In this document: positions 237 through 63,886 of the stretch, piece after piece
How positions within the stretch are numbered: the first letter of the stretch is position 1
Layout of the letters: every line of letters begins with the position of its first letter
Assembly (NCBI GenBank): GCA_964491925.1
Contig: CAZBGZ010000002.1
Location: forward strand, 49,492 to 113,491
Source: an uncultured Candidatus Saccharibacteria bacterium
Lineage (GTDB): Bacteria; Patescibacteriota; Saccharimonadia; Saccharimonadales; JAGQNJ01
DNA length: 64,000 nt
Reading direction: 5' to 3'
Translations under genes and position numbers: made by a program
The notes under the pieces: generated by a model
What the model saw: only the letters and a program-made list of their open reading frames with translations
Database searches by the model: none
Told to the model about the DNA's origin: nothing

Positions 237-245
237 AATATAACA
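237..245 (-). promoter_or_regulatory. extended -10 element, leaderless-type spacing
   Basis: Minus strand reads TGTTATATT; 7 nt to ATG at 229. Confidence 0.45.
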
Positions 246-258
246 GGTTGGCTTTTTT

Positions 259-267
259 TGTTATTAT
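259..267 (+). promoter_or_regulatory. extended -10 element, leaderless-type spacing
   Basis: TGTTATTAT; 6 nt to ATG at 274. Confidence 0.45.
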
Positions 268-273
268 GCGATT

Positions 274-909
274 ATGAAAATAACAAAATATGAGCATGCT
301 TGTCTGGATATTCTTGATGAATCGAATCGCCTTGTTATTGACCCGGGTGAACTAAGCCAATCCTTCGCAGACTTTGAGAATATTAACGTTTTAATTATTA
401 CTCACATTCACGGGGACCATTTTGACCCTAAAAAAATCAAAGCCATTATCAGTGCGAATCCAAATATAAAAATTTTTGCCACCAGCGAAATAGCCGGCGA
501 ACTAAAAGGGCGAGTTGTGACAGTCCCAGAATTGGGGAAACTATACAGTACGGATTCTTTCAATTTAGAATTTTTCGGTGAGTTACATGAAATGGTGGAC
601 CCAAAAACACCACAAGTCGAGAACATTGGCGTGCTGGTCAATAACAAATTGTACTATCCAGGCGATTCATTCACGGTGTGCCAAAAACCATTCATAGTTC
701 TTGCCGTACCAAAATCAGGACCTTGGTTTCGTGTTAGCGACTCTCTTCAATTATTTGAAAAGTCGAATTGTCAGCTCGTATTTCCAACTCATGACGGACT
801 ACTGAATGAAATTGGACATGGGACTATAAATAATTGGCTCAAAACGTTCGCAGAAAGGAATAATAAAAACTACCACCCACTAAAAATAGGTGAATCATTG
901 GAAATTTAG
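274..909 (+). CDS. MBL-fold metallo-hydrolase
   Basis: 211 aa; THIHGDHF (HxHxDH metal-binding motif) about 40 aa from the N-terminus. Confidence 0.75.
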   Translation: MKITKYEHACLDILDESNRLVIDPGELSQSFADFENINVLIITHIHGDHFDPKKIKAIISANPNIKIFATSEIAGELKGRVVTVPELGKLYSTDSFNLEFFGELHEMVDPKTPQVENIGVLVNNKLYYPGDSFTVCQKPFIVLAVPKSGPWFRVSDSLQLFEKSNCQLVFPTHDGLLNEIGHGTINNWLKTFAERNNKNYHPLKIGESLEI

Positions 910-1622
910 CTGATTATTGTGCCAATTTTTTCGCCGTTAACTAATTTTAGTAGATTATCTTCTTTTGAAGCATCGAACACTGCGATTGTTATTCCATGCT
1001 CTACTGCCATGCCCAATGCTGCTTGGTCCATGACTTTAATCTCTCGGTTTTCGACGGCATGCTGCAAAGTTAAATTATCATGCAGCTTGGCATCGCTATG
1101 TTTCGCAGGATCTTTGTCGTAAACACCTTCGACTTTTGTAGCCTTAATAACAATGTCACAATCTAATTCAAGACCCGTTAGAACAGCCGCTGTATCGTGC
1201 GTAGAATACGGACGGCCTGTACCTCCAGCGACAAGCAAAACTCGATCATTCTCCAGGTGTTTTTCAGCTAGACGGTAAGAATAGCTTTCTGCCAGTTGTT
1301 CAACAAAAATATTACTGAGACATCGGGTGGGGACACCGTGGGCCTCAAATATATCTGTCAATGCCATAGCGTTCATTAAGCCGGACAACATTCCCATTTG
1401 GTCAGCCGTAACTCGCTTTATGCTGCTATCCTTTGATAACTCTTCACCTCTGACCATGTTGCCGCCACCGACTATCACCACAACCTGTACCCCTTGGCGT
1501 TGTACTTTTGATATTTCCTCAGCCAAATACTTGGCTACTTCTGGGTCTATTCCGTATTCGTGATTGCCAGCCAGTTGCTCGCCAGATAGCTTCAATAGGA
1601 TGCGTTTGTACTTTGTACTCAT
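906..1622 (-). CDS. pyrH: UMP kinase
   Basis: 238 aa; KRILLKLSGE...VVIVGGGN...TGRPYSTHDTAA, typical PyrH amino-acid-kinase fold motifs. Confidence 0.93.
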   Translation of the reverse strand: MSTKYKRILLKLSGEQLAGNHEYGIDPEVAKYLAEEISKVQRQGVQVVVIVGGGNMVRGEELSKDSSIKRVTADQMGMLSGLMNAMALTDIFEAHGVPTRCLSNIFVEQLAESYSYRLAEKHLENDRVLLVAGGTGRPYSTHDTAAVLTGLELDCDIVIKATKVEGVYDKDPAKHSDAKLHDNLTLQHAVENREIKVMDQAALGMAVEHGITIAVFDASKEDNLLKLVNGEKIGTIIS

Positions 1623-1632
1623 CTAAGAGACA

Positions 1633-1641
1633 AGTCTAGCA
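1633..1641 (-). promoter_or_regulatory. extended -10 element, short-leader spacing
   Basis: Minus strand TGCTAGACT; 10 nt to ATG at 1622. Confidence 0.4.
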
Positions 1642-1672
1642 GATACGTTGTTATATCGCTATACTTTATGTT

Positions 1673-2470
1673 ATGAAATTGTATAGTTGGAATGTAAACG
1701 GGATTCGGGCAGTCTGGAATAAAGGTGAATTCAAAAAGTTCATAGATACCCACAAGCCAGATGTGTTGTGCTTGCAAGAAACAAAAGCCCAGCAACATCA
1801 ATCCGAAGTTGACATCGAGGGATACGAAGAATACTGGAACAGTGCTGAAAAAAAAGGTTACTCTGGCACTGCAATTTTTTCAAAACAAAAACCTCTGGCG
1901 ATTATCAACGGTTTCCCAGAAGATATTATCAAAAAACACAAAGTTACCGGCGATGTATACGGCGACCCGAACAAAGAGGGTAGGGTGATGACTGCCGAGT
2001 TCAAGGATTTTTATGTCGTAACTGTTTACACCCCCAATTCCAAAGATGACCTCAGCCGAGTCCAACTGCGACATAAGCATTGGGACCCGGCATTCTTGGC
2101 CTACATAAAACAACTCGAAACCAAAAAACCAGTACTTGCTTGTGGCGACCTAAATGTTGCTCATACCGAGGACGACCTGGCTAGGCCCAAGCCAAACATT
2201 GGCAAGCGAGGTTTTACCAATGAAGAGCGTGAGGGCTTCCAAAATTTCGTAGACAATGGGCTACTGGATACCTTTCGTTTATTCACTCAGGGGAATGGTC
2301 ATTATAGCTGGTGGACACACTTTGCAAAGGCACGAGAACGTAATGTTGGCTGGCGCATTGATTATTGGCTAGTAAGTAGCAATATAAAAGACAAGATAAA
2401 ATCTGCCGAAATCCACCCAGAAGTCATGGGCTCGGACCATTGCCCAGTCAGCATAGAAATAAAGGCATAG
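1673..2470 (+). CDS. xth: exodeoxyribonuclease III (AP endonuclease)
   Basis: 265 aa; MKLYSWNVNGIRA...LCLQETK...GSDHCPV ExoIII family signatures. Confidence 0.93.
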   Translation: MKLYSWNVNGIRAVWNKGEFKKFIDTHKPDVLCLQETKAQQHQSEVDIEGYEEYWNSAEKKGYSGTAIFSKQKPLAIINGFPEDIIKKHKVTGDVYGDPNKEGRVMTAEFKDFYVVTVYTPNSKDDLSRVQLRHKHWDPAFLAYIKQLETKKPVLACGDLNVAHTEDDLARPKPNIGKRGFTNEEREGFQNFVDNGLLDTFRLFTQGNGHYSWWTHFAKARERNVGWRIDYWLVSSNIKDKIKSAEIHPEVMGSDHCPVSIEIKA

Positions 2471-3702: not shown

Positions 3703-3711
3703 TGCTAGTCT
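3703..3711 (+). promoter_or_regulatory. extended -10 element, leaderless-type spacing
   Basis: TGCTAGTCT; 7 nt to ATG at 3719. Confidence 0.4.
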
Positions 3712-3718
3712 AGAGAGT

Positions 3719-4429
3719 ATGAAGAGGTTTGCGGTTTTCGATATCGATGGTACGTTGATTCGTTGGCAACTTTACCACGCCGTTGTCGACCACCTAGCCA
3801 GAGAAGGACTGTTGGGGAAGTATGATCATAAAACCCTGCATCAAGCCAGGATGGTTTGGAAACGCAGAGAGACCTCGGATGCATTCAAAGATTATGAAAA
3901 AACTCTTATAAGTACCTACGAGAATTCGTTGCCTGGGCTCAGTACCAAAGATTTTGATATTGCGGTAGAAGCAGTAGCCCGCGAATACAAAGAACAAGTT
4001 TATAACTATACCCGCGGGTTGGCCGATTCGTTAAAAAACAAAGGTTACGTGCTACTAGCAATTTCTGGATCACACCAGGAATTAGTAAAACACATTGCAC
4101 AGCAATACGATTTTGACGATTGGGTGGGGACTATCTACCATAGAGTAGGCGACGGCTTCACGGGCTCAAAAACAGTGGCATCACTAGATAAAAAGGAAGC
4201 CCTACAAAATCTGGTAGACAAACACAACTTGACCTACGTGAATAGCTACGGAATCGGCGATAGCGCCAGCGATGCTGCATTTTTAGAGGTTGTCGACAAT
4301 CCGATTGCCTTCAACCCAGACCAACAGCTGTTCGACATGGCAAAAGAAAAAAGTTGGGATATTGTTATCGAACGGAAGAACGTTATTTATAGCCTAAAGG
4401 ACAACAATGGAAAATACATATTGGCATAA
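3719..4429 (+). CDS. HAD-IB family hydrolase (SerB-like)
   Basis: 236 aa; FDIDGTL motif I at the N-terminus, later ISGS and GDSASD motifs. Confidence 0.8.
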   Translation: MKRFAVFDIDGTLIRWQLYHAVVDHLAREGLLGKYDHKTLHQARMVWKRRETSDAFKDYEKTLISTYENSLPGLSTKDFDIAVEAVAREYKEQVYNYTRGLADSLKNKGYVLLAISGSHQELVKHIAQQYDFDDWVGTIYHRVGDGFTGSKTVASLDKKEALQNLVDKHNLTYVNSYGIGDSASDAAFLEVVDNPIAFNPDQQLFDMAKEKSWDIVIERKNVIYSLKDNNGKYILA

Positions 4430-9898: not shown

Positions 9899-9907
9899 TG
9901 TTACAAT
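9899..9907 (+). promoter_or_regulatory. extended -10 element, leaderless-type spacing
   Basis: TGTTACAAT; 7 nt to ATG at 9915. Confidence 0.5.
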
Positions 9908-9914
9908 ACTTGCT

Positions 9915-11351
9915 ATGAGCAGTCTAGATGTCAGAACGCGTTTTTGCCCAAGCCCTACCGGGTATATGCACGTTGGTGGGGTGCGAACAGCTTTATTCGC
10001 ATGGTTAGTGGCAAAACAGAACCAAGGTACTTTTATACTAAGGATAGAAGACACCGACAAAAATAGAGAAGTCGAAGGATCTGAAAAACATATTTTGGAA
10101 TCTTTGAAATGGCTTGGTATCACATGGGCGGAAGGTCCGGATGTTCACGGTGAATACGGGCCCTACCGGCAAAGCGAACGTCTAGCCATATATAAAAAAT
10201 GGGCAGATAGGCTAGTCGCTGAGGGCCGAGCATATGCTGATCCATACACAAACAAGCAAACTCAGAAGTTTCGAGAAGACGCACAGAAAGCCAGACAGCC
10301 ATTTCTGTTTCGTAACCATAGGCCATCGAACCCACCAACCTGGGATGGTTCTACGCCACTTCGTTTCAAGTCCGAACCCAAGCCCTATAAGTGGCATGAT
10401 GAAATCATGGGGAATCTAAGCACGGGTCCAGAGGTTGTTGATGACTTTATTCTTATTAAATCGGATGGTTACCCAACATACAATTTTGCTCACATAGTTG
10501 ATGACTGCGAGATGAAAATTTCCCACATTATTCGTGGGCAAGAATTCGTATCATCAATGCCAAACTACTTGAACTTGTACGAGGCACTTGGGCTAGAGCA
10601 TCCTATTTTTGCAACCGTCCCACATATCCTAGCCCCGTCGGGGAATAAAAAATTGGGCAAACGAGATGGGGCAAAAGATATTTTAGATTATCGAAATGAG
10701 GGTTATCTACCCGAGGCAATGGTTAATTTTTTGGCAACCCTAGGGTGGAATGATGGCACAGAAGATGAGATATTCTCAATTGATGATCTAGTTAAAAAAT
10801 TCTCATTAGACAGAGTACAAAAGAGTGGTGCCAGATTCGACGAACGACGATTACTTTGGCTAAATGGGTCTCACATTCGGAGACTGAAGATTGAGGATTT
10901 ATTTAAGTCCGTCGAAAATTATTGGCCAGAAACAGCAGCAAGCTACGACGATGGCTATAAAAAACAAATACTAGGCCTATTACAAGAAAGGCTAAAGTTT
11001 TTTGCAGAAATTCCGGATCTAACATGGTTCTTTTTCACTGACGATATACCCGTGCAGCCAGAATTAATCGACTCACATAAACAGTTAAAAAAACTGGATA
11101 AGGTCGCGTTAAAGACTTTGTTAAAAACAAGCATGTCGTCTCTAGAACAGAGTGATTTCAGTCACACAGACTTAACAAACAGGCTCAACAAACTGCTGGT
11201 GGAAACGGATCAGAAACCAGCGATATTATTCAGTCTTATACGCATCGCTATCACTCAGGCGCCTTCAAGCCCGGGATTGGCAGATACATTGGCAGTATTG
11301 GGTAGAGAACGAAGCCTAAAGCGCATTCAAACAGCTTATGATACACTGTAA
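9915..11351 (+). CDS. gltX: glutamate--tRNA ligase
   Basis: 478 aa; RFCPSPTGYMHVGGVRTALF (HIGH-type motif) and LGKRDG (KMSKS-like) region. Confidence 0.93.
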   Translation: MSSLDVRTRFCPSPTGYMHVGGVRTALFAWLVAKQNQGTFILRIEDTDKNREVEGSEKHILESLKWLGITWAEGPDVHGEYGPYRQSERLAIYKKWADRLVAEGRAYADPYTNKQTQKFREDAQKARQPFLFRNHRPSNPPTWDGSTPLRFKSEPKPYKWHDEIMGNLSTGPEVVDDFILIKSDGYPTYNFAHIVDDCEMKISHIIRGQEFVSSMPNYLNLYEALGLEHPIFATVPHILAPSGNKKLGKRDGAKDILDYRNEGYLPEAMVNFLATLGWNDGTEDEIFSIDDLVKKFSLDRVQKSGARFDERRLLWLNGSHIRRLKIEDLFKSVENYWPETAASYDDGYKKQILGLLQERLKFFAEIPDLTWFFFTDDIPVQPELIDSHKQLKKLDKVALKTLLKTSMSSLEQSDFSHTDLTNRLNKLLVETDQKPAILFSLIRIAITQAPSSPGLADTLAVLGRERSLKRIQTAYDTL

Positions 11352-12637: not shown

Positions 12638-13894
12638 TTAAGCACTCTTTAGAAGTAATTCAAAATACTGGGTACCACCGAATGGAATTTTTTGTTTCAC
12701 TACGTTTTTGCTGTTCATGGTATTCGCCGAGCTAATAACAAAACTACCATAGCGCTCATTTATCTCGTCCACTGCCGTTGTTAGCCACTCTTCTTTGCTG
12801 ATGTCTTCGAAAATGCTCGTTTGGCTACGATTCGAGGGCGTCAACTGATAGCAAGTGATGCCCATGCTGGCCACTATCATGTGTTTTGGTCGCTGGTTGA
12901 ATAAATACAAAGCACGCTCATAAACACTTTTGTCAGTATAGAAAGGGACTTTGAACATTTTGCGTTTGTACCAGCCTTCGCCGTTAGCGAATGAAGCCCA
13001 GACCAAGACACCACGCGAATCAACATTGTTATATCGTAGTTTTCGCCCAGTTGTCTCGCACAAATACTGAAACCTAGATAATATTGTATCTTCGTCCATT
13101 GTACGCACATCCAGCACGTACTGTCGCCCAACGTTGCCCAGTTTTGTTTTGTAATCATCGACCTCATAACCGCGCAAACGTTGATACCAGTCTTCTCCCA
13201 CAACAGATCTAAAAACTGCTTTTCTAAGAGTGTCAGAAGATGCGTCCAGAAACTGTAATGGCGTATTTATACCCTGAGCATTGAGCCTAGCCTCATAGTG
13301 TTCAGCAATCCCTGGCAAATCTGTCAATTTCAGTCGAGCATAAATCTGTCGCAGGTTTTTATGAGTAATGACGTCCAAACCATCTGGTTTGTGCAAACCC
13401 GCCGCTAACTTTGCCAAAAATCGGTTAGGGGCTATGCCGACATTAATCCGCATCCAGTCACCAATTTCATCTCTAACCCGTCTTTTTATTTCGTGACCGA
13501 TAACGCTCAATGGCCGGGTATTTATAGACCGTCTTGTGTCATGAAAATCAATGATTCCTTCGTCTATACTCTTCATCTTGACGTCGGGCGAGTAGCTTTT
13601 CATAATGTGTGCTAATTTTTGATAAACATAATGGTACTTTGGCGGGTCGGTCTCTAGCATAACTAAATTGGGGGCCAGTAACTTAGCTTCGTCAAAGCGC
13701 ATACCTACTTTTATGCCTTTGGCTTTGCCTTCGTACGAGCAGGCGATAACACAGGCGCCCTTAGACAGCCTGTTCGTCACAGCGACGGGTCGACCACGCA
13801 AGGACGGGTGCGCCTGCTGCTCGGTTGTAGCAAAAGCACTGTTCAAATCAACGTGCATAATGTTAGGTTGTTCACTATTCAGGGGTAGCTGCAT
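12638..13894 (-). CDS. dinB: Y-family DNA polymerase (DinB/Pol IV-like)
   Basis: IMHVDLNSAFATTEQ...LRGRPVAV N-terminal Y-family signature. Start moved to ATG 13894 (MQLPL), which is preceded by GGAGGG 6 nt upstream. The track start is 13915. Confidence 0.88.
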   Translation of the reverse strand: MQLPLNSEQPNIMHVDLNSAFATTEQQAHPSLRGRPVAVTNRLSKGACVIACSYEGKAKGIKVGMRFDEAKLLAPNLVMLETDPPKYHYVYQKLAHIMKSYSPDVKMKSIDEGIIDFHDTRRSINTRPLSVIGHEIKRRVRDEIGDWMRINVGIAPNRFLAKLAAGLHKPDGLDVITHKNLRQIYARLKLTDLPGIAEHYEARLNAQGINTPLQFLDASSDTLRKAVFRSVVGEDWYQRLRGYEVDDYKTKLGNVGRQYVLDVRTMDEDTILSRFQYLCETTGRKLRYNNVDSRGVLVWASFANGEGWYKRKMFKVPFYTDKSVYERALYLFNQRPKHMIVASMGITCYQLTPSNRSQTSIFEDISKEEWLTTAVDEINERYGSFVISSANTMNSKNVVKQKIPFGGTQYFELLLKSA

Positions 13895-14159
13895 GCGAGC
13901 CCTCCAATATAGCAACCAGAGTCCATATCAAGCCTTCTGCATCGAACTCTAAACGATAATCATTTGTGCCGTCACTCATATCAAAGACATGTATCATTCG
14001 CCGGCCCTTGGTAGTGGGGTGGCGCAGTGCTAGCTTTGTGAATGATATTTCTTGATTTTTATATTTCATTCGCACGGGCAGGCAATTAGGCCCGTATTTG
14101 CCCTCGCCATAGCTAGCAATTACTTTGACGCGCTCACTCACACGTATAGTCGGATCCAT
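13875..14159 (-). CDS. small conserved-looking protein translationally coupled to the Y-family polymerase
   Basis: 94 aa from ATG 14159 (GGAG 9 nt upstream). Its TAG stop lies 20 nt inside the polymerase ORF. The C-terminal DGTNDYRLEFDAEGLIWTLVAI beta-hairpin-like pattern recalls a DUF6504-type family, from memory only. Confidence 0.55.
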   Translation of the reverse strand: MDPTIRVSERVKVIASYGEGKYGPNCLPVRMKYKNQEISFTKLALRHPTTKGRRMIHVFDMSDGTNDYRLEFDAEGLIWTLVAILEGSHAATPE

Positions 14160-16313: not shown

Positions 16314-16331
16314 AAACCAATAATACCAAAT

Positions 16332-17084: not shown

Positions 17085-17088
17085 GGCT

Positions 17089-17859: not shown

Positions 17860-17866
17860 ATAAATA

Positions 17867-49770: not shown

Positions 49771-49779
49771 ATGGATATT

Positions 49780-49788
49780 ATTGTAGCA
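49780..49788 (-). promoter_or_regulatory. extended -10 element, leaderless-type spacing
   Basis: Minus strand TGCTACAAT; 9 nt to ATG at 49770. Confidence 0.5.
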
Positions 49789-49837: not shown

Positions 49838-50470
49838 TTAACCCGGAATAATTTTGGATGACTTGCCGTTTATAACAAGTGCTTGTTCGTCGGATATCTC
49901 AACAACCTCATAACCTTCACATTTTAATGATTTACTAATCTTTTTAACTACACCGCCAAATTTTTCGTTGTCTATGTGCGGTACAACGACTTTTTCTGTA
50001 AGGTTTAGGCCTTCAATAATAACTTTAGGAGCATCCTTTGGGTTATCTGCATCCTCAAAATACTTTAGTGTTGGTCCAGCTACAATGGCACCTGCACTTC
50101 CGCCACCGTATACTAATCCAGACCGTACAAGGTCGTTGATAATTTTATCAGCGCCTACATCTTTCAAAATCCATCTCAGGTAAAAAGAATTGCCCCCACC
50201 GACCCAAACCACATCTTTACTTGCCAGTTTACTTATCAACATTGGCTGTTTATCTTTATACTTCCGTAGGTCAACAAGCTCTACTTCATAACCACAGGAT
50301 TTAATGGCTTCACGGTTTTCAACCACCCAATCGACAGTATCATCATGGTACACATCAGCAGCATTTTCTATCAATGCTAATTTAATATCTTTCGCTGGCT
50401 TGCCAACGAGTTCAATGAAAGCATCCTCTTGCTCTCTTGAAATTGCCATTGAAGAAAGAAAAAGTTTCAT
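49838..50470 (-). CDS. peptidase S51 (dipeptidase E-like) family
   Basis: 210 aa; VWVGGGNSFYL and GGSAGAIVAG motifs. Confidence 0.72.
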   Translation of the reverse strand: MKLFLSSMAISREQEDAFIELVGKPAKDIKLALIENAADVYHDDTVDWVVENREAIKSCGYEVELVDLRKYKDKQPMLISKLASKDVVWVGGGNSFYLRWILKDVGADKIINDLVRSGLVYGGGSAGAIVAGPTLKYFEDADNPKDAPKVIIEGLNLTEKVVVPHIDNEKFGGVVKKISKSLKCEGYEVVEISDEQALVINGKSSKIIPG

Positions 50471-50479
50471 ATTAGCTTA

Positions 50480-50488
50480 ATTGTAGCA
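50480..50488 (-). promoter_or_regulatory. extended -10 element, leaderless-type spacing
   Basis: Minus strand TGCTACAAT; 9 nt to ATG at 50470. Confidence 0.5.
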
Positions 50489-51510: not shown

Positions 51511-53019
51511 CTATACTACTGAATCTTCGCCGAAGTGTTTTTTCAGACGAGATCGGATTGACCCAGGGTGGCGGCCAAAAACAGAGGTGGCTTTTTTAAT
51601 ATCTATTTTTTTGCCTGATGAAAACATATCCACCAGTTTTTTGTCATCGGCGTCGTTCCATGGTTTGTAGGCATTTGGGTAGTCTTTTCGCATTTTTTTG
51701 AGCTTTTCGGACCATGTATTTTTGGTGAGTGGTTCGGGTTTAGATTTACGGACGGCTGCTTTTTCTTTTAAATCAGCAAAACGTTTGGCATCTTTTCTGG
51801 ATGCAGCCCGTAGTTTTTCGTCAATTCTAAGAGCCTCTGGACTGACTTTCAAAGCCATCTTATTCAGCCCCATTAGACTAAGTGTGTCAAAACTACGCAC
51901 CCTAGACAACGCCACATAACCCATCCCCTCAACAAACGCTTTACCGAGGTTAATTCGTGCCGCATCTAGTGTCATCCCCTGGCTTTTGTGTACTGTTATT
52001 GCCCATGCAAGCCTCAGTGGTATCTGCGCCAAACTAGCGCGTTTTTTATCACCATCACGTAGTTCCCACGAGTCTGGCAAGACAGTTATCTTACGCCCAC
52101 TCTTCAAAGTTACGATCGGAAAGTCCGTCGATTTTTCAAAGCCCGTTACCTCACCCAAAGTTCCATTAGCGTATTTTTTATCTGGGCTATTTTTTATGAA
52201 CATAACCAATGCGCCTTTTTTTAAAACTAACACCTCGTTCGCCAAACAAGCACGTTTCAATGAATCAACGTACACTTCCTTGCCGGTTGTTGACATCTTG
52301 TATCGATGTTCTTCCCCGTCAAGGTCTTGCAGTCGGTGATTATTGATACTGTCGACATCAATGTTAGTAGTGTGCAGTTCCGTTACGTCGCCGAGGTCAA
52401 CCTGATTTCGCTTTAGTAACGATTCGGCATGACTGCGACGAATATCCCCTGCTCGCAATGCTTCTAAGATATCTAGAAAATCATCATCATTTTGGCGGTG
52501 TTGTTCCTCCAGATAACAGATTACCGGGTTCAGTTCTTGCCACACGTCAGCGTGAACTACAAATTGACCTTGATCCTGTCCACCCCTTGTAACCGGCGGT
52601 AGTTGGAAAAAGTCCCCGCATAAAATTACCTGAATGCCACCAAATGGCTCATCTTTTCCTCTGACCTTGCGAGCAACTTTATCAACCATATCTAGACGAT
52701 AGTGATGAAGCATAGAAATTTCGTCGATAATCAACACATCTGTTTTAGCAATAGTATCCCTGCGACCCTTATGCATGTGATCATGAAAATTTTTTGGTAA
52801 ACTATCCAAAATCCCGATTCCACTCCAGGCATGAATCGTATTGCCACTGAGATGCGTTGCGGCCAGGCCAGTCGTGGCAGTGACTGCCACTGTTTTTCCG
52901 TCCGCCTTAGCCGCCCGAATAAATTTGTTCAGCACATATGTTTTCCCCGACCCAGCTGGACCAGTTAAAAGTGCGTTTTCGCCACTCAATAAAATTTCTA
53001 ACGCTAACGCCTGATCCAT
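51511..53019 (-). CDS. PIF1/RecD-like SF1 DNA helicase with basic C-terminal tail
   Basis: 502 aa; Walker A GPAGSGKTY, LIIDEISM (Walker B), QLPPV, ITVHKSQG motifs. The last ~90 aa are Lys-rich and HTH-like. Confidence 0.85.
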   Translation of the reverse strand: MDQALALEILLSGENALLTGPAGSGKTYVLNKFIRAAKADGKTVAVTATTGLAATHLSGNTIHAWSGIGILDSLPKNFHDHMHKGRRDTIAKTDVLIIDEISMLHHYRLDMVDKVARKVRGKDEPFGGIQVILCGDFFQLPPVTRGGQDQGQFVVHADVWQELNPVICYLEEQHRQNDDDFLDILEALRAGDIRRSHAESLLKRNQVDLGDVTELHTTNIDVDSINNHRLQDLDGEEHRYKMSTTGKEVYVDSLKRACLANEVLVLKKGALVMFIKNSPDKKYANGTLGEVTGFEKSTDFPIVTLKSGRKITVLPDSWELRDGDKKRASLAQIPLRLAWAITVHKSQGMTLDAARINLGKAFVEGMGYVALSRVRSFDTLSLMGLNKMALKVSPEALRIDEKLRAASRKDAKRFADLKEKAAVRKSKPEPLTKNTWSEKLKKMRKDYPNAYKPWNDADDKKLVDMFSSGKKIDIKKATSVFGRHPGSIRSRLKKHFGEDSVV

Positions 53020-53094
53020 AGTCTATACAGTATAGCTCGGATACAATTTTTTATTGAAAATATTGCAAGCCTGATAACGTGCAAAGATCTTGTG

Positions 53095-53312: not shown

Positions 53313-53936
53313 CTACCTGGCTCCTTTCCTCTTGTAATCTTTGTAGGCTAATTCCCTACGCATTTCGTCGATTCTAATTATATACTTCTCGTAAGGTTTT
53401 AACAGAGACGAATAAAATCGATTTGGTGTCATTATGTGCTTCAATCTCTCTTTGCCTGCCAGGTACTCGGCCAGACAGTAAAAGTCACCATCGCCCGATA
53501 CAATGATCGCTTTTGAGTAGTTGGGCATTTCCTTCATCGCGTAAAGCACCAATTCGGCGTCTACATTCCCCTTCACTGCTCTTTTTGCCGTTTCGGAGTG
53601 ATCATTATGATTGTGATTCTTAGAATCTTTTTTAGACTGATTAGTATGGTCAATGTGTTCAGTTGTTTGGGAAGAATCATTCATAACTACAGTCGGTTTT
53701 AGTACTACCAGATAACCTAGCTCGTGCAAGGTGTTATACATTTCTTCATGCTCACTCATATACCCAATAAACAGATAGGCCCGCGTTACACCATGCTCTT
53801 TTTGCAAATACTGATATAGCTTGCTCCAGTCCATTTTCCAACCCATTTTCTGGGTACCTAGATTTAGGTTTTGACTATCAATAAAGGCATATACGCCCTT
53901 TGCTTTTTGATGTGTTTTTCGTCGAAACGGCCTCAT
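53313..53936 (-). CDS. NYN-domain (LabA/PIN-like) protein with His/Asn-rich insertion
   Basis: 207 aa; VYAFIDSQNLNLG N-terminal Asp motif and IIVSGDGDFYCLAEYL C-terminal acidic motif. Insertion HIDHTNQSKKDSKNHNHNDH. Confidence 0.78.
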   Translation of the reverse strand: MRPFRRKTHQKAKGVYAFIDSQNLNLGTQKMGWKMDWSKLYQYLQKEHGVTRAYLFIGYMSEHEEMYNTLHELGYLVVLKPTVVMNDSSQTTEHIDHTNQSKKDSKNHNHNDHSETAKRAVKGNVDAELVLYAMKEMPNYSKAIIVSGDGDFYCLAEYLAGKERLKHIMTPNRFYSSLLKPYEKYIIRIDEMRRELAYKDYKRKGAR

Positions 53937-53967
53937 CTTGAACTAATAATAGCACTTTATGTAAACT

Positions 53968-54534
53968 TTATTTTTGTTGTCGGGCTATTAATAATACTTC
54001 CACAAAATTTGCTACGGAAATATATACCGGAAATACTATCACCGAATAAGCCAAGCTACCACCTGCCGCTATACTAAACCAAGGGGCGACTACACCGCCC
54101 CAGAAAAACAACTGAGTTTCACTTTTTGGTTCACGCCAAGTCTTTTCAAGTGTAGGCCAAAAAGCTATTGTGTCAGCCAGTATCGACAGGTGCAGCGCCA
54201 ACAGAGCGCTACCTGTTTGCCACCATGCAACAAGACTCAACACCAACAACACATAGCAAAGCAGATCATTTTTTGATAAACCACCAACCCCATGCTTCAT
54301 GGCCAAACCAAAAAGCATAACTGATGACACTATCTCCCCTATAGTTAACGCCATTGTTAAGCCAGAGCCCAAACTGTGCTGCTGCGCTAGTGTAACGATT
54401 ATTAGCAACAAAAGCATCGTCCTTGCCGCCCTTGCTGGTTTTGCCCTACCTTTTACTATGTCAATCATATATGGGATGGTTACGGCAATTATTATCAAGA
54501 ATGAAACTATTGCTAGAATATTTTGCATAAGCAT
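53968..54534 (-). CDS. integral membrane protein (about 6 TM), unknown function
   Basis: 188 aa; strongly hydrophobic. The N-terminal IPYMIDIVKGRAKP is vaguely PQ-loop-like. Confidence 0.55.
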   Translation of the reverse strand: MLMQNILAIVSFLIIIAVTIPYMIDIVKGRAKPARAARTMLLLLIIVTLAQQHSLGSGLTMALTIGEIVSSVMLFGLAMKHGVGGLSKNDLLCYVLLVLSLVAWWQTGSALLALHLSILADTIAFWPTLEKTWREPKSETQLFFWGGVVAPWFSIAAGGSLAYSVIVFPVYISVANFVEVLLIARQQK

Positions 54535-54543
54535 TTTCCCTAA

Positions 54544-54897
54544 CTATACCTTATCAGTCTTAAAAGCAGCCCACCCAGTCGCCCTATATGGGGTCACCCA
54601 TACATTAAAACTACCTGGCTTTTTTATTAATTTGACGATTTCTTCACTTATTTGACTAGCGATTCCCTTAAAATGGATTGTAGCTTCTTCAACAGAGCAG
54701 TCAGCGCCCTCAGGATTTTTGGGCCAATTGATTTCAGCGATTTCTACATGCAGTTCGGTGTGCGCATCAGACGAAGACCCACCATGATTAACTTCCAAAG
54801 TTCGAATGGTTACATCTCCTGGCTGTGGTTTTTTTCTACCATATACAGCCTCAGACGTTACTTTCTCAGCTGCTGCGCGCCAAGTTTTTATCTGCAC
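54544..54897 (-). CDS. hypothetical protein; start codon uncertain
   Basis: 117 aa from GTG 54897. A strong AAGGAG lies about 50 nt upstream and is in frame only with non-canonical ATA/ATT codons. Confidence 0.45.
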   Translation of the reverse strand: MQIKTWRAAAEKVTSEAVYGRKKPQPGDVTIRTLEVNHGGSSSDAHTELHVEIAEINWPKNPEGADCSVEEATIHFKGIASQISEEIVKLIKKPGSFNVWVTPYRATGWAAFKTDKV

Positions 54898-55021: not shown

Positions 55022-55030
55022 TGATATAAT
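55022..55030 (+). promoter_or_regulatory. extended -10 element, leaderless-type spacing
   Basis: TGATATAAT; 6 nt to GTG at 55037. Confidence 0.5.
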
Positions 55031-55036
55031 GGGGTA

Positions 55037-55816
55037 GTGAAACAGATTGAAACCATCAAGAAGTACCTGCAGAAACTCGATATAGAACCCGAGACCACTG
55101 ATGTTTATATAGAGTTAATAAAACTAGGTCCTTCCTCTGCCCTACAGCTCGCAAAATCGACCAAAATCACTCGTACACAAATATACCGCCATTTAGAGCA
55201 TTTACAGTCCCTAGGGCTAGCTAGTGCTGAAAAGTTGAGCTATGGGACATTATTTCGTGCTCTGCCTCTAGAAAACCTCGAGGGGCCTATCGCTAATAAG
55301 GAGGCTGAAAATGCTGCTATTCGTCGTAATCTAGGTAATATGGGCGATATTCTAGCCTCTATTAGCGGTACAGGTGGGCCCAAGGCAACCATTCAGCACT
55401 ATTACGGCCAGGGTGGTTTAAAACAGGTCAACTGGAACCTTACCAAGGCTGAAAAAGAGTTCAAAGTTTTCGAGGTAGCTCACCTGTCCCACCACCTAGA
55501 CGTTGCCTTCGCACGACGCTGCCGCGAACGTTATATGGAGAAAGGACTGACTAGCTATGACTTGACCAATGCCACCACAGTCCTAGCGAAAGATCTAGAG
55601 CCTTTTAACCCATCAAAATCATTTTCGCGACACGTTGACCCCAAGGTTTTGACCATCAACTTTGAAATGTACATGTATAACGACGTCGTGACTTTGGTAG
55701 ATTACAGCAAAGACCAGCCAATGGCACTAGAAATCCACCATCCGGCGCTCAAAATGATGATGGAGCAACTCTTTGACTCCATCTGGACCACCGCAACTCC
55801 CCTAAAAATCCAATAG
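55037..55816 (+). CDS. TrmB-family transcriptional regulator
   Basis: 259 aa; N-terminal winged HTH DVYIELIKLGPSSALQLAKSTKITRTQIYRHLEHLQSLGL plus a C-terminal effector-like domain. Confidence 0.68.
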   Translation: MKQIETIKKYLQKLDIEPETTDVYIELIKLGPSSALQLAKSTKITRTQIYRHLEHLQSLGLASAEKLSYGTLFRALPLENLEGPIANKEAENAAIRRNLGNMGDILASISGTGGPKATIQHYYGQGGLKQVNWNLTKAEKEFKVFEVAHLSHHLDVAFARRCRERYMEKGLTSYDLTNATTVLAKDLEPFNPSKSFSRHVDPKVLTINFEMYMYNDVVTLVDYSKDQPMALEIHHPALKMMMEQLFDSIWTTATPLKIQ

Positions 55817-55824: not shown

Positions 55825-56763
55825 TTAGTTTTTAATGATATATCGATCGTCTTTTCCGGCAAGAATATTCAACATCGAGTCTGTTATCGTATCGCTCATG
55901 AGCTTCGCACCCGCTTCGGTAATTGTGTTTGAAGTTTTGTTAGAATACCAGCGACTAAAGGGGAGTTTTTCAAATTCAGGGAGCGACATTGGATAGTCAG
56001 AAATTACCCTTATTCTGCCCTCCTTCAGCGTTTTCAATAGCGCCTCTTCATCAATAACTCCTGGGTGTGTTGTATTTATCAATAAGGAATCGTCTTTCAT
56101 CATTCGCAGATTTTCTATATTGAATAGATTTTTTGCATCATCTGAAACACACAGGAACACAATGTTGCTTTGTTCTAAAAGCTTTGCCATTTCTAGATAT
56201 TGAACACCCAGCAAACCCTCCTTATCCTCATGGCGTCTTCGACTGTAATAACTCACGCTAGCTGGCCTGAAAGGTTTTAGCATTTCAGTAATAGCAGAAC
56301 CAATCCTACCTAGTCCAATAATACCTACATTCTGTCCCTCAATTCCTTTTGTGATAGCAAACTTTTTTGCCCCCATCCGCCCAAGCTCCAAGAACTCCCT
56401 ATTCATCATAAGACAAGCCGCAATCGCCCATTCAGAAACTTCATGCGTGGGGCCATCGGGCGCGTAAGTTATGGTAATACCGTTTTCAATAGCATGTGAC
56501 CAACCTGGTATAAAGTGTTGATAGCCTACGGCTGCTACTGATATTACTTGGAGCTTATCGGCAGCATCAATAACTTTATCAGTTATTCGCTCAATACCGC
56601 CCTGTAAATAGCCGATCTTTCCTCTAACTAATTCGCAAAGTTCATCTTCAGTTGAATCTGGCTTCTCGCATCTAACAATTGCATAACCTGCAGCCTCGAG
56701 CTTCTTAACATGCTCGTCGTAGATAAACAAAGTGTCAGTAACTAAAATTGTGCCCTTAATCAT
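55825..56763 (-). CDS. D-isomer-specific 2-hydroxyacid dehydrogenase family
   Basis: 312 aa; NAD-binding VGIIGLGRIGSAI. Confidence 0.8.
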   Translation of the reverse strand: MIKGTILVTDTLFIYDEHVKKLEAAGYAIVRCEKPDSTEDELCELVRGKIGYLQGGIERITDKVIDAADKLQVISVAAVGYQHFIPGWSHAIENGITITYAPDGPTHEVSEWAIAACLMMNREFLELGRMGAKKFAITKGIEGQNVGIIGLGRIGSAITEMLKPFRPASVSYYSRRRHEDKEGLLGVQYLEMAKLLEQSNIVFLCVSDDAKNLFNIENLRMMKDDSLLINTTHPGVIDEEALLKTLKEGRIRVISDYPMSLPEFEKLPFSRWYSNKTSNTITEAGAKLMSDTITDSMLNILAGKDDRYIIKN

Positions 56764-56904
56764 TCTTGGCTAATAATATCACTAAAGAAACACTAAATCT
56801 AAGTCTTTGCAGCCAAATGATGCGACAGATGTTTGAACACTATTGGGAAATAGCGAAATAGCCGGTTTTATACGGCTATTTTCGCGCACTTGGCTATCTA
56901 TAAA

Positions 56905-57276
56905 TTAGTCGCCAGGATTATAGTCTGAAAGCAGAGCATTCCAAGTCTGCGGACCAACAATTCCATCAACAGTTATGCTTTTTAGAGTTTGGAATTTCTT
57001 TACAGCTTTTTTAGTCTGCTGACCAAAAACACCATTAACAACTAGTCGTGGTTCAACGTGATAAACATTATTTAGTTTTCTCTGCAAAATACTAACACAA
57101 GGGTGTGTTGAGTTGGTTGTCATGCTTAGCATTGGCTGTCTACTCAAACATAAAGAATAGTTCCATGATACTGGTTTTGCCTTAGCAGATGCTGCTGGTG
57201 CCATTACTGCCCCAACGCTTGCTACTGATACTGCCACCATTACAAATGCACTGACTTTTTGAATTATTTTATTCAT
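56905..57276 (-). CDS. secreted peptidoglycan-binding-domain protein
   Basis: 123 aa; signal peptide ending ASA-K; LQRKLN...VNGVFGQQTKKAVKKFQ...VDGIVGPQTWNAL = PG_binding_1 pattern. AAGAGGAG SD 5 nt upstream. Confidence 0.75.
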   Translation of the reverse strand: MNKIIQKVSAFVMVAVSVASVGAVMAPAASAKAKPVSWNYSLCLSRQPMLSMTTNSTHPCVSILQRKLNNVYHVEPRLVVNGVFGQQTKKAVKKFQTLKSITVDGIVGPQTWNALLSDYNPGD

Positions 57277-57363
57277 AAAACTCCTCTTAAATAATTTCTT
57301 ATTGTTAGATTATACTATATTTAATGATTAATTACAATACCTAAAATATTTAGTTTTATAAGT

Positions 57364-60300: not shown

Positions 60301-60669
60301 GACCGATTTTACAGAAGAGTCAACTTTTGCTTTTACTGCTTCCGCATTTGCCGAATCATCTATTTGGACAACAACGCTAGAGAAGTTATCTAGACTCTGC
60401 GAGCTGTAAGATTTAACTCCGTCTATGCTTTTTATGCTGGCTTCTATCGGTTTTGTGACATCCTCTAGCACCGTGCCGGATGCTGCACCTGGGTATACTG
60501 TATTTACAGTAACAACTTTAATTTCCGGCGACGGGAAACCACTTGTGCGAAGAGCAAAAATAGATACGGCGCCAAAGGCAACCAAAGTAAATAGCGCAAC
60601 CAGCGTGATACGCGAGTGCTCTAAAAAATATTTCGCAATCCTTGTGTTTAAACTATGTCTCCTCGCCAT
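57364..60669 (-). CDS. RND-superfamily (AcrB-like) transporter permease
   Basis: 1101 aa; 12-TM topology with two large loops; N-terminal FLEHSRITLVALFTLVAFG...VYPGAS typical of the ACR_tran family. No adjacent adaptor or outer-membrane gene. Confidence 0.88.
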   Translation of the reverse strand: MARRHSLNTRIAKYFLEHSRITLVALFTLVAFGAVSIFALRTSGFPSPEIKVVTVNTVYPGAASGTVLEDVTKPIEASIKSIDGVKSYSSQSLDNFSSVVVQIDDSANAEAVKAKVDSSVKSVSLPENSQAPEVGSPKVSNDEYSYALVSKKGSSDMESIYEATDILHKRLEQDPEVISVNVAGDLKQQVVVKMNPQKMADAGLSQEIVTNQLKSWGLQIPVAENATFGEKNYNIVLSLSGKSLDDLRQLTILGLTGQSAKLSDVASVDTKFALKNQADDVVGYRDGKKGSVDKAAIFGIDVDDKTDLSAYNTKLESVIDTYFNPNSAEFKKLPADQKALFSNLKLVEVYNTNTDNQDQVKEVIAGLAGEKWGIPIVGWIGFAFGAIQLVFIFMMVLVSWRAAVIAALAIPLCFFFSTITLLATGNELNTLTLFSLVLVIGLVVDPAIVVLEVIQRYIDKGEKGRAAVLSAIDDIGYGLFIAVVTSILVFIPFGIVSGVFGAIIAYIPLTIIPALIGSYIVPLVFLSWLASVMLKRQPGKSDDEEKNLWRASRWMIRTNRKLLDLNVFIRLAIVISAVVVPFIVAGYYMGSGKVKTVQFAQPEEGKLLTMSVTKLPQASPSSADESAKKLLAEVIKNPNVRFVAPIYSQGAGNVSYFIGLNDPSERPGQTAHKIAKNFSDSVSSGDASKLYFDISIGASSAGPPSANFPVSVGIKTADLDKQKQVALEVTKVLNQICDVDGKFAIDPNCSPGDKAVIKVDNGSGAQTNKFISVRLDRKKLQTNPVNPISLREQLAGLYQLNNGDQVAKLNIDNQQIPIILSSDNHKPNTVSDIKSVNVMTLTGQPVSLGQIATVAEVESPGSIRQVEGEAIGVVNAKLKEDYSDQQNAALIQKLAIDEFNKNYLQKYNDGLTVEGYSEGDVASINKSFQELGVALVLAIVLTYVLLVIFFDSISMPLVILFAIPLTFLGIFPGLAYLGGGQMGFLEIIGVIILVGLVENVAIFLIDAANRKEKEGMPAKDAIAYATGVRFRPIMLTKVMALASLAPLAVLSEFYRSLSVVIICGLLVSGILSLFVTPILYIFFQELVPNLRKHLTRKKSKI

Positions 60670-60709
60670 TACTAGTAATTATATATGTATAGCTCGGAGA
60701 GTAAAATAT

Positions 60710-62083: not shown

Positions 62084-62166
62084 GCCTTTATTGTATCAGT
62101 ATTTAGAATTATAGGTTTTACGTCAATTAGATCTGTAAGCTACTAATAATCCACGTGCAATCGTAC

Positions 62167-62580
62167 CTAGGAAATTTTTGCTAAGATGTAGCGGTAAATC
62201 GTCTGACAGAATAGGCTAACAATAAGACAAAAACTTGCAATCACTACCCCATCCACAACTAGTCTTTTTTCATTTTTCCGTACTCGAAGAAATTTCATCA
62301 TAAGCAAGGATATTAGAATTGCCAGTCCGGACATAATCACCGCGCAAGTGGTTAGTCTATCAAGTTCAGTTGTAACACCATTAAATAAATCTTGTTGATT
62401 GAATTTTTCTACAACGCTACTAAAGACTCCGTAGCTAACTGTATGGCTAATGGATACCAAAGTAGCCCACAAAATAACCGTCGATCCTGCAGCAACCAAC
62501 AGGCTAATACGTTGCACAACACGTGCAATATAATACGTCGTATCAGTAGATTTGAAATTTATGTTTTTATTTTTTGACAT
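62167..62580 (-). CDS. hypothetical membrane protein
   Basis: 137 aa with 3-4 hydrophobic segments. Confidence 0.45.
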   Translation of the reverse strand: MSKNKNINFKSTDTTYYIARVVQRISLLVAAGSTVILWATLVSISHTVSYGVFSSVVEKFNQQDLFNGVTTELDRLTTCAVIMSGLAILISLLMMKFLRVRKNEKRLVVDGVVIASFCLIVSLFCQTIYRYILAKIS

Positions 62581-62647
62581 TATTTTTTTCCTTTTTGTTG
62601 GTTTTTTAACGAACAGTCATGTATGTATTATATCACCCTTTAAAATT

Positions 62648-63868
62648 TCAATTTTTAGCGACAATCTGCGCCGGTTTAGAAATATACCTGATTAGTGATG
62701 GGATGGCCACGATTATGAATATTGCTAGGAGTGCCCTCTGAACAAAAATAATCCCTCTACTTTGCAAGCCCATACCTATCAGGATGCTGGCTCCTGCCAA
62801 AATCAAGTTTCCTACAAAACTATACGAGCTCATCGCAGTTGCTCTCCATTTATTTTCAATATGATCGTGGATAATTGGTCGCACAAAATTATCCATAACA
62901 GACGAAATTAGATTAAAGCCCAAAAAAGCTACCAAAAATATGCCCTTTATATCTATGGAATAGAGGCCGAAAACAGAGATTGTCATTATGCATAGATATA
63001 TAAGTTTTTGCTTATCAGTTTTCACTTTTTTTAGCACAATCAGGTTGAGTATTATCAGAGTTAACGCCTTTGCCATAGACAACGTCAATCCCCTTCCCGC
63101 CGGCGAAATATTGTAATGTATCATAGCCGCTTCGTTCAGGTTTTCTATGGACATCCAGGCAATTACGCTGAGCGTGCAACCATAGACTATTAATGGCCTG
63201 ATTCTTTTAATACTAAACAGATGTAAAAATCCTTGTTTGTTTGTTTTTATATACTTCTTAAATCTATGTGTCTTCGTGTTTGAAATTTTTTTGGACTCTT
63301 CGGTCGGAGTATCCAGTGACCGGATTTGCATTATTACTATTGCTCCACAAAGAAATGACAAGCTCTGTACAACGAATGGCAATAGATGGTTGAATGAGTA
63401 CATTAATCCTCCCAGGGCAGTTGATGCTATCAGGCCTGCCTGCCAAAAAAATGTTTCCTGGATTATTATCTTTCTATACAAGACCTTATCCATTCCTGGC
63501 AACTCATAAAGATGCGATTCTAAACTGCCGCTAATAAATGCACTCCCCAGTCCGCCTACTACGGCAGCTAGAATATATGCGGTAAAATTCCCACCCAAAT
63601 ATACTATCCCTGGCACTAACATACCGCACAAAGCGCCAATGACCGCGCTTCGTTTACGTCCAAAGTTGTCAGCGAAAGCACCAGTAGGGATCTCTGCTAG
63701 TAGTCCTATTAAATAGCCTACGGCAAGGTAGATTCCGAACTGGGATATTGTGATGCGTTCAGTAGCAAAGCCGAACCAAAATGGCCAAGTATAAAACCCA
63801 GCGAGTAGAAACTGGCTAATTAGAAAAAGTTTTGCACTGTGCGGAAAACCATTAAATTCTTTGATCAT
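62648..63868 (-). CDS. MFS transporter
   Basis: 406 aa; about 12 TM; GAFADNFGRKR (MFS motif A-like) after TM2. Confidence 0.8.
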   Translation of the reverse strand: MIKEFNGFPHSAKLFLISQFLLAGFYTWPFWFGFATERITISQFGIYLAVGYLIGLLAEIPTGAFADNFGRKRSAVIGALCGMLVPGIVYLGGNFTAYILAAVVGGLGSAFISGSLESHLYELPGMDKVLYRKIIIQETFFWQAGLIASTALGGLMYSFNHLLPFVVQSLSFLCGAIVIMQIRSLDTPTEESKKISNTKTHRFKKYIKTNKQGFLHLFSIKRIRPLIVYGCTLSVIAWMSIENLNEAAMIHYNISPAGRGLTLSMAKALTLIILNLIVLKKVKTDKQKLIYLCIMTISVFGLYSIDIKGIFLVAFLGFNLISSVMDNFVRPIIHDHIENKWRATAMSSYSFVGNLILAGASILIGMGLQSRGIIFVQRALLAIFIIVAIPSLIRYISKPAQIVAKN

Positions 63869-63877
63869 TTATCACTA

Positions 63878-63886
63878 ATTGTAGCA
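63878..63886 (-). promoter_or_regulatory. extended -10 element, leaderless-type spacing
   Basis: Minus strand TGCTACAAT; 9 nt to ATG at 63868. Confidence 0.5.

Follow-up and report, generated by a model that had tools for sequence, protein, structure and literature searches.

How does a bacterium mark the starts of its genes? The question is raised by a 64-kb stretch of DNA (the window, meaning the whole stretch that was analysed) from Candidatus Saccharibacteria (TM7), a lineage of the candidate phyla radiation (CPR), in which an element of the form TGnTAnnnT stands a few nucleotides ahead of many start codons. The answer proposed here, to which a probability of roughly 85% is assigned, is that the element is an extended -10 promoter placed directly ahead of where a transcription unit's first gene starts, so that the mRNA would be leaderless or nearly leaderless. 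Coupled genes, defined as those that overlap a same-strand upstream gene or lie at most 15 nt from it, would be led instead by Shine-Dalgarno (SD) sequences.

TGnTAnnnT occurs at 195 sites on the two strands of the window. With d defined as the number of nucleotides between the last base of the motif and the start codon, the motif ends 6-11 nt from the first possible start in 24 of the 63 open reading frames (ORFs) of at least 100 amino acids (aa), at d=6 (8 genes), 7 (5), 9 (8), 10 (1) and 11 (2). Other offsets are nearly empty, and the chance expectation from motif density is about 0.6 genes. Counted from the motif, an ATG opening an ORF of at least 100 aa stands 6-11 nt past 26 of the 195 sites; the same count gives 3 for TGnATnnnT, 0 for GTnATnnnT and 1 for the reversed motif, all controls of the same composition. 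Dinucleotide-preserving shuffles (n=200) contain the raw string TGnTAnnnT-N5-11-ATG 20.3 +/- 4.4 times, and never more than 33 times; the window contains it 42 times (z ~5). A 25th case lies at 245-237 on the minus strand (d=7, ATG 229), where the ORF leaves the window at its left edge. An extended box precedes 25 of about 66 window genes (about 40%), and in some five more (1673, 45389, 53019, 54534 and 60669) the box at 6-9 nt is of a plain, TATAAT-like kind. The start codon is ATG in 24 of the 25 cases, GTG 55037 being the sole exception, and an SD 4-mer at 4-12 nt was found in 0 of the 24 extended -10 genes of the window.

These counts bear out a first-pass annotation of the window, made from the sequence, which had listed at least 22 genes with an extended -10 near the start and had found no SD in them; the number is now 24 with the edge case besides, and the spacing is 6-11 nt. 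The positional enrichment over shuffled sequence that it had named as a check is present both in the window and, as a sharp peak at d=6-7, in relatives. It had also singled out three minus-strand genes that share TGCTACAAT and exactly 9 nt ahead of the ATG. The three boxes (49788, 50488 and 63886) are as described, and a fourth, 33958 on the plus strand, joins them. The four were considered as copies of a repeated cassette, an idea rejected on finding that only the 9-mer is common to them.

The same motif was sought in two sets of relatives, one of 39 other Saccharibacteria loci flanking gltX (~700 kb) and, independent of it, one of 120 metagenomic contigs (flanks of rRNA operons) fetched by a TM7-type 16S signature. 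In the gltX-flank set the ATGs of long ORFs peak at d=6 (86) and d=7 (45), with a shoulder at 9-10 nt, over a background of ~4 per position, and the profile of a control motif is flat. The rRNA-flank set gives two equal peaks, at d=6 and d=7 (23 each), and the d=6-7 peak is sharp over ~1.5 Mb of related sequence. Pooled starts at d=6-7 comprise 190 ATG, 14 GTG and 8 TTG, with GTG and TTG no commoner than in the background; start-codon usage was rejected as a discriminator, since SD-led genes also begin mainly with ATG. Loci from a Chitinophagaceae metagenome-assembled genome (MAG) and a Dehalococcoidales MAG hold one case each, against 2-8 in Saccharibacteria loci of similar size, numbers too small for a peak. 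On these sequences, the observation extends across the phylum Saccharibacteria.

The gltX gene illustrates how the element persists. TGnTAnnnT lies 6-9 nt (mostly 6-7) from the gltX ATG in 28 of the 39 loci, despite upstream flanks that cannot be aligned, and several of the remaining loci have a plain TATAAT at equal distance. One locus (L037) has an AGGAGG SD ~12 nt ahead of the gltX start in place of the leaderless-type promoter; a single gene can therefore change mode inside the phylum. The closest relative of the window (L001, ~80-87% nucleotide identity) has, at the gene corresponding to 274, a new TGGTATAAT 7 nt from the ATG, in a shifted position and with diverged surroundings, while the box at 16328 is kept as TGCTATTAT, changed at a free position only. 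The 45-nt upstream regions are 80% identical between the two, against 65% at third codon positions; this comparison rests on five syntenic extended -10 sites, two of them in rearranged stretches, and is suggestive only.

The identity of the element is indicated by 110 promoters of relatives aligned on the hexamer, in which T is found at -17 (69/110) and A at -16 (66/110), followed by TG, n and TAtAAT, giving the consensus T-R-T-G-n-T-A-t-A-A-T. As the promoters had been selected on TG and TAnnnT, independent evidence comes from the flanking and inner positions only. A TRTGn extended -10 is a feature of sigma-70-family promoters in Firmicutes and Escherichia coli. Best matches to TTGACA average 2.83 in the promoters and 2.51 in shuffles, and matches of 5-6/6 are slightly in excess. 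The first-pass annotation had seen no convincing -35, and this stands with weak enrichment only and one exception, promoter 22851, whose TTGTCA at 17 bp is the sole good -35 of the extended -10 set in the window. To judge from these positions, the TGnTAnnnT element is a sigma-70-family extended -10 with little or no -35.

The bases of the spacer point to where transcription would begin. In the d=6 class (n=116) T or C stands directly ahead of the ATG in 111 cases and G in 0. RNA polymerase start sites favour a pyrimidine at -1 and a purine at +1, and transcription beginning on the A of the ATG therefore fits. In the d=9 class (n=24), 18/24 have a pyrimidine at spacer position 6 and 18/24 a purine at position 7, which suggests a transcript start 3 nt ahead of the AUG; T is directly ahead of the ATG in 15/24 of these cases.

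The distribution of the element follows gene spacing. In relatives the extended -10 precedes 9/190 coupled genes vs 120/426 spaced or divergent genes (odds ratio, OR, 0.13, p 7e-13), a depletion of the motif before coupled genes of ~8-fold. SD 4-mers are distributed the other way, at 84/190 coupled vs 89/426 spaced or divergent genes (OR 3.0, p 7e-9). Genes that trail another by 16-40 nt carry the box in about half of cases, which is possible because the promoter is compact. The mode of initiation is predicted by distance to the upstream gene rather than by protein localisation, and this predictor is a strong one.

An SD pathway requires an anti-SD, and the first-pass annotation had proposed that the 16S 3' end be inspected. 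Neither the window nor the gltX-flank loci contain a 16S gene; 3' ends were taken from metagenomic genes that match the target of the TM7-905 probe, which belong to genomes other than the window's own. All 73 of 73 complete TM7-type 3' ends read GGATTACCTCCTTTCT, with the anti-SD CCUCC intact. In loci L044-L163, GGATTACCTCCTTTCT is followed nearly always by AGGGAG or AGAGGAG, which can pair with the anti-SD and may thus give a precursor helix. ATGs peak 5-9 nt past GGAGG or AGGAG (33, 42, 38, 45 and 30 vs a background of ~8), and the SD pathway is clearly kept alongside leaderless-type promoters. An anti-SD that is less often detected has been described in a subgroup of Parcubacteria only (Tsurumaki et al. 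2022, PMC9297842).

Initiation in these bacteria would thus be expected to proceed as follows. The first gene of a transcription unit would have an extended -10 with little or no -35, recognised by the housekeeping sigma factor and abutting the start codon. RNA polymerase would start ~7 nt past the hexamer, and with a spacer of 6-7 nt the transcript would begin on the A of the AUG or 1 nt ahead of it; with a spacer of 9-11 nt the leader would measure 2-5 nt (at gene 22871 probably 3-5 nt). Such mRNAs would have no room for an SD and would enter a leaderless pathway that recognises the AUG at the 5' terminus. Overlapping and closely following genes, together with a minority of first genes that have 25-45-nt leaders, would use SD/anti-SD pairing. 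The leaders of 0-5 nt foreseen by the first-pass annotation agree with the promoter geometry, the logo, the pyrimidine at -1 and the gene spacing, but the functional partition that it had attached to them fares badly (see below). We infer the actual transcription starts and the initiation pathway from sequence.

The mechanism is one already known; its occurrence in Saccharibacteria or the CPR appears unreported. Genomes of GeneMarkS-2 group C have a -10 (Pribnow) box 6-8 nt ahead of first-gene starts and SD sequences elsewhere; the group includes 90% of the genomes of Actinobacteria and 97% of those of Deinococcus-Thermus, 25-50% of transcripts being leaderless by prediction, and bacteria of the group have about 25-60% leaderless transcripts (PMC6028130). 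The placement of the -10 on first genes is shared between Saccharibacteria and group C genomes (Mycobacterium tuberculosis, Streptomyces, Corynebacterium, Deinococcus deserti), as are SD sequences on internal and remaining first genes and a retained anti-SD. Of the features of the group, a -10 at 6-8 nt, motif depletion with SD at internal genes, and mostly AUG starts are present in the sequences studied here. Unlike the group C examples, the genes described here belong to a Saccharibacteria/CPR lineage of mid-to-low GC content (42%), with promoters strongly of TRTGn type and almost no -35, and in the window the class with 9-nt spacers is unusually large. The extended -10 promoters of Firmicutes and E. 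coli likewise prefer T/R at -17/-16, with TG one base upstream of the hexamer and a -35 that is weak or can be dispensed with. Those promoters normally give leadered mRNAs with an SD, whereas in Saccharibacteria the promoter abuts the start codon.

Saccharibacteria and the CPR go unmentioned in the main text of PMC6028130. A full-text search (most subscription journals outside its scope) returned no report of the leaderless layout in Saccharibacteria, Patescibacteria or the CPR, the hits being entries in reference lists or mentions in another context. The study of CPR ribosomes (PMC9297842) deals with the same group of organisms, mRNA leaders and promoters being outside its subject; it reports that Saccharibacteria are without bL9, that all CPR are without uL30 and that CPR bS1 is short (3-4 domains). 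A link between this reduced ribosome and leaderless initiation is speculation. In the work that established Saccharibacteria genetics (PMC10633639), expression cassettes borrow the tuf and rpsJ promoter regions, their leaders passing without comment.

Several points weigh against leaderless initiation from an extended -10 as set out here. An RNA-acting motif of at least 9 nt would also need intergenic room, and the dependence on spacing favours a promoter without proving one. The related loci are partly orthologous, and the cases counted in them cannot be treated as independent. The TM7-905 probe sequence, on which the choice of 16S genes depends, is presumed to be specific to TM7. A literature search found no mapped transcription starts for any Saccharibacteria genome, and leaderlessness is read from geometry. 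Finally, 12/25 promoters of the window have spacers of 9-11 nt, which by the usual rule would give leaders of 2-5 nt and mRNAs that are not truly leaderless.

From this last point comes the alternative that survives best, namely that the 9-11-nt class (12/25) consists of short-leadered mRNAs that are translated differently or poorly, and that only about half of the genes are truly leaderless. It falls a little short of an even chance. The pyrimidine/purine step at spacer positions 6 and 7 of the d=9 class, placing the start 3 nt ahead of the AUG, speaks for it, as does the over-representation of d=9 here, 8/24 in the window vs 5/104 in more distant Saccharibacteria loci. On the other side, RNA polymerase is able to initiate as far as 9-10 nt from the -10 box, and with T so often before the ATG at d=9 some of these transcripts may begin on the A. 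Start-site studies in Actinobacteria usually count leaders of 0-5 nt as leaderless. A separate feature of the class is that five of the eight d=9 promoters in the window (32865, 50488, 53954, 56781 and 63886) have TAG or TAA right after the -10 box, in frame with the ATG; this is seen in 0/16 d=9 promoters of relatives, and may be due to chance or be specific to the lineage.

A division of labour, in which leaderless initiation would be reserved for housekeeping or cytosolic proteins and SD leaders for exported or envelope proteins, was the further suggestion of the first-pass annotation, and it now looks unlikely. The SD leaders on which it was founded are all located as claimed, at 18445, at 33417 (with TTGACA-17-TATATT) and at 57276, and the operon-internal gene 13894 does have GGAGGG 5 nt from its ATG. 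These three leadered genes, with leaders of 25-45 nt, account for 3/5 signal-peptide-like proteins of the window, in which only 1/24 extended -10 genes encodes such a protein (extended -10 vs SD, p 0.018) and nearly all of the 24 encode cytosolic ones; a looser definition by N-terminal transmembrane segment gives 0/24 vs 12/35 (p 0.0008), and in the gltX-flank relatives signal peptides are depleted (OR 0.38, p 0.016). There are counter-examples, however: a -10 box stands 6-9 nt from the ATG in genes 63868 (predicted Major Facilitator Superfamily transporter), 45389 (FtsI-type penicillin-binding protein), 60669 (RND-type protein) and 54534 (membrane protein), while a protein with a twin-arginine-like signal (15533) and a sortase have leaders without a clear SD. 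In the pooled relatives, signal-peptide or N-anchored proteins form 5.7% of the extended -10 class vs 9.6% of other genes (OR 0.56, p 0.11, not significant); depletion is absent from the independent rRNA-flank set (OR 1.24) and from polytopic membrane proteins (OR 1.25). Distance to the upstream gene accounts for far more than localisation does. The signal-peptide and transmembrane calls are crude hydrophobicity rules, and the categories were set after the window had been viewed. Depletion of signal peptides in the extended -10 class would be a weak trend at best, because the rules are simple and the loci partly orthologous, and the two regimes of the first-pass annotation are largely unsupported. 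The combined proposition, that Saccharibacteria throughout express their genes by default through leaderless initiation at -35-less extended -10 promoters, an unreported CPR trait perhaps linked to the reduced ribosome or to actinobacterial hosts rich in leaderless genes, and that signal-peptide proteins are selectively kept on SD leaders, is a shade more doubtful still.

Some genes appear to have leaders and yet no SD. A perfect extended -10, TGCTACAAT at 25698-25706 (-), lies 53 nt ahead of gene 25644, and another, TGGTACAAT at 20836-20844 (+), lies 27 nt ahead of gene 20872 (response regulator); an SD is absent from both. Gene 15533 (14727-15533, minus strand) encodes a 268-aa protein without a Pfam match, with the twin-arginine-like N-terminus TRRRLLKGLVASGVIVAVGS; a conserved TATAAT is found ~27 nt upstream and an SD is absent. 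The TAATTT ahead of the sortase gene 5941 is not kept in L001, the conserved element there being a TATAAT ~50 nt upstream.

Far less probable is a motif that acts in RNA, that is, a non-SD ribosome-binding or translation-enhancing element in a leadered mRNA, as in GeneMarkS-2 group B (Bacteroidetes type), rather than a promoter. Its distance from the start equals that of a ribosome-binding site, and since about half of the genes 16-40 nt behind another carry it, many tandem genes would need promoters of their own if it is one. Bacteroidetes-type genomes likewise have many genes without an SD and an AT-rich conserved element near the start. Their motif is a different one, and in Saccharibacteria the motif is limited to first genes, coupled genes have an SD, and the anti-SD is intact (73/73) and evidently functional. 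Bacteroidetes have a TAnnTTTG -7 promoter. The exact match to the extended -10 consensus, including T and R ahead of the TG, and the pyrimidine (-1) and A (+1) at d=6, a feature of polymerase start sites, also stand against an RNA element. UGnUAnnnU is not known to have a partner in rRNA or among proteins. Group B motifs precede first and internal genes alike (PMC6028130), whereas this one is depleted ~8-fold before coupled genes, where SD sequences are found instead.

That AT-rich upstream DNA next to an ATG yields functionless TGnTAnnnT-like strings through chance or base composition is refuted: although plain TAnnnT without TG at 5-11 nt precedes 18% of genes where ~13% is expected by chance (a frequency for which it was rejected as a class marker), the full motif gives 24-26 cases vs ~0.6 expected and 0-3 in controls, with the shuffle score, the peaks in relatives and the conservation ahead of gltX in agreement.

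The positions of all these elements depend on the start codons assigned. Predicted starts are considered trustworthy because Pfam domains begin near the N-termini and public gene calls agree. In most motif genes domain onset is within 2-10 residues of the predicted N-terminus (residue/profile position 6/2 for the glutamyl-tRNA synthetase, GluRS, 5/1 for HAD, 3/1 for LMWPc, 2/8 for the aldehyde dehydrogenase and 5/2 for GH1). The starts of 4407, 5941, 8721, 9915, 11396, 13894, 14650 and 15533 match public gene calls on an identical 11.7-kb contig from the Logan assembly of SRR14932609. The elements and their genes are collected in Table 1.

Table 1. Promoter and SD elements ahead of start codons in the window. 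Spacing is the distance in nt from the element to the start codon.
Position (strand)	Element	Spacing	Start	Gene product and remarks
227..245 (-)	extended -10 TGTTATATT	7	ATG 229	ORF MIKPFLFLQLRPEDAL... runs off left window edge; divergent to promoter 259
259..276 (+)	extended -10 TGTTATTAT	6	ATG 274	metallo-beta-lactamase-fold protein
1620..1641 (-)	extended -10 TGCTAGACT	10	ATG 1622	amino-acid kinase family, by our reading possibly a UMP kinase
1660..1675 (+)	plain -10 TATACT, no TG	7	ATG 1673	exo/endonuclease/phosphatase family
3703..3721 (+)	extended -10 TGCTAGTCT	7	ATG 3719	HAD hydrolase
9899..9917 (+)	extended -10 TGTTACAAT	7	ATG 9915	glutamyl-tRNA synthetase
13892..13905 (-)	SD GGAGGG, operon-internal	5	ATG 13894	impB/mucB/samB family (DinB-type Y-family polymerase)
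16311..16328 (-)	extended -10 TGGTATTAT	6	ATG 16313	pentapeptide-repeat protein
17082..17099 (-)	extended -10 TGTTAGAAT	6	ATG 17084	alpha/beta hydrolase
17857..17875 (-)	extended -10 TGGTATAGT	7	ATG 17859	256-aa protein without Pfam match
18443..18457 (-)	SD GAGAGGT	5	ATG 18445	168-aa protein, signal-peptide-like N-terminus
22119..22137 (+)	extended -10 TGTTACAAT	7	ATG 22135	pseudouridine synthase; promoter within 21-nt gap to preceding gene
22851..22873 (+)	extended -10 TGTTATAAT	11	ATG 22871	Der/EngA-type double GTPase (read from Pfam domains)
24366..24383 (+)	extended -10 TGATAGACT	6	ATG 24381	peptidyl-tRNA hydrolase
27144..27164 (+)	extended -10 TGTTATAAT	9	ATG 27162	ROK-family kinase
30488..30505 (+)	extended -10 TGCTATAAT	6	ATG 30503	208-aa protein without Pfam match
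31236..31253 (+)	extended -10 TGTTAAAAT	6	ATG 31251	HIT-domain protein
32865..32885 (+)	extended -10 TGTTAGAAT	9	ATG 32883	low-molecular-weight phosphotyrosine phosphatase family
33346..33419 (+)	classical TTGACA-17-TATATT, ~40-nt leader, GGAG	10 (GGAG)	ATG 33417	158-aa signal-peptide-like protein
33958..33978 (+)	extended -10 TGCTACAAT	9	ATG 33976	2-hydroxyacid dehydrogenase
35425..35443 (+)	extended -10 TGATACAAT	7	ATG 35441	LD-carboxypeptidase (peptidase S66)
45387..45401 (-)	plain -10 TATAAT	6	ATG 45389	FtsI-type penicillin-binding protein, N-terminal hydrophobic segment
49141..49163 (-)	extended -10 TGATAGAAT	11	ATG 49143	glycoside hydrolase family 1
49768..49788 (-)	extended -10 TGCTACAAT	9	ATG 49770	SnoaL-like protein
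50468..50488 (-)	extended -10 TGCTACAAT	9	ATG 50470	peptidase S51
53017..53034 (-)	plain -10 TATACT	9	ATG 53019	PIF1-type helicase
53934..53954 (-)	extended -10 TGCTATTAT	9	ATG 53936	NYN-domain protein
54532..54548 (-)	plain -10 TATAGT	8	ATG 54534	188-aa protein, strongly hydrophobic N-terminus
55022..55039 (+)	extended -10 TGATATAAT	6	GTG 55037	TrmB-type regulator
56761..56781 (-)	extended -10 TGATATTAT	9	ATG 56763	2-hydroxyacid dehydrogenase
57274..57314 (-)	TATAAT, ~30-nt leader, SD AAGAGGAG	4 (SD)	ATG 57276	peptidoglycan-binding protein, signal-peptide-like N-terminus
60667..60683 (-)	plain -10 TATAAT	8	ATG 60669	AcrB/RND-family match, 1101 aa
62081..62098 (-)	extended -10 TGATACAAT	6	ATG 62083	aldehyde dehydrogenase
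63866..63886 (-)	extended -10 TGCTACAAT	9	ATG 63868	Pfam MFS_1 match (Major Facilitator Superfamily), predicted polytopic membrane protein

In three divergent gene pairs the intergenic region common to both genes measures 44 nt (230-273), 50 nt (1623-1672) and 57 nt (3662-3718), lengths that are possible because extended -10 promoters are compact. The first holds extended boxes in both directions (245-237 and 259-267). In the second, the extended box 1641-1633 faces the TG-less TATACT of gene 1673, which is probably of leaderless type; this region is 100% identical in L001, against ~80% for the rest of the aligned block. In the third, only a TATATT, 3 nt from the ATG, is directed towards gene 3661.

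The window has a GC content of 42-44%, two tRNA genes and no rRNA gene. Its glutamyl-tRNA synthetase gene (9915-11351) is 89% identical to the copy in an uncultured Candidatus Saccharibacteria MAG. A species-representative genome collection yielded 43 related loci, of which 41 belong to Saccharibacteria, Nanosyncoccaceae or relatives. Pfam annotation gives an ordinary housekeeping mix, which includes an amino-acid-kinase-family protein, GluRS, a Der/EngA-type GTPase, peptidyl-tRNA hydrolase, topoisomerase I, DprA and peptide deformylase; a two-component pair, accessory enzymes and several membrane or exported proteins are also encoded.

A cell-division and cell-wall cluster (47662-39278, minus strand) encodes MraZ, an RsmH-type methylase, a small FtsL-like protein and the FtsI-type penicillin-binding protein, followed by a glycosyltransferase family 4 protein (MraY-like), FtsW, a MurG-type glycosyltransferase and a 303-aa unknown protein. 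Mur ligase genes are absent from the stretch between the genes for the penicillin-binding protein and the MraY-like protein, and the former has its own TATAAT within the cluster. Gene 36994 (36994-38034, plus strand) encodes a 346-aa protein with an unusual pairing of sigma-70 region 4 (residues 25-70) and a C-terminal HARE-HTH domain (286-323); its leader, counted from TGCTACAAT at 36888-36896, is ~95 nt.

Saccharibacteria are the only group of the CPR/Patescibacteria with cultivated, and now genetically tractable, members. For these, a 9-nt extended -10 followed by 6-7 nt and an ATG, with no -35 and no SD, would provide a minimal rule for the design of expression constructs. Gene finders that assume an SD would mis-place starts, and the annotation of gene starts in thousands of MAGs may be improved. 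A deep-branching lineage would join the leaderless-rich bacteria, which bears on the question of whether leaderless initiation is ancestral. The main value of the finding would lie in the annotation of CPR genomes and in the design of genetic tools for them.

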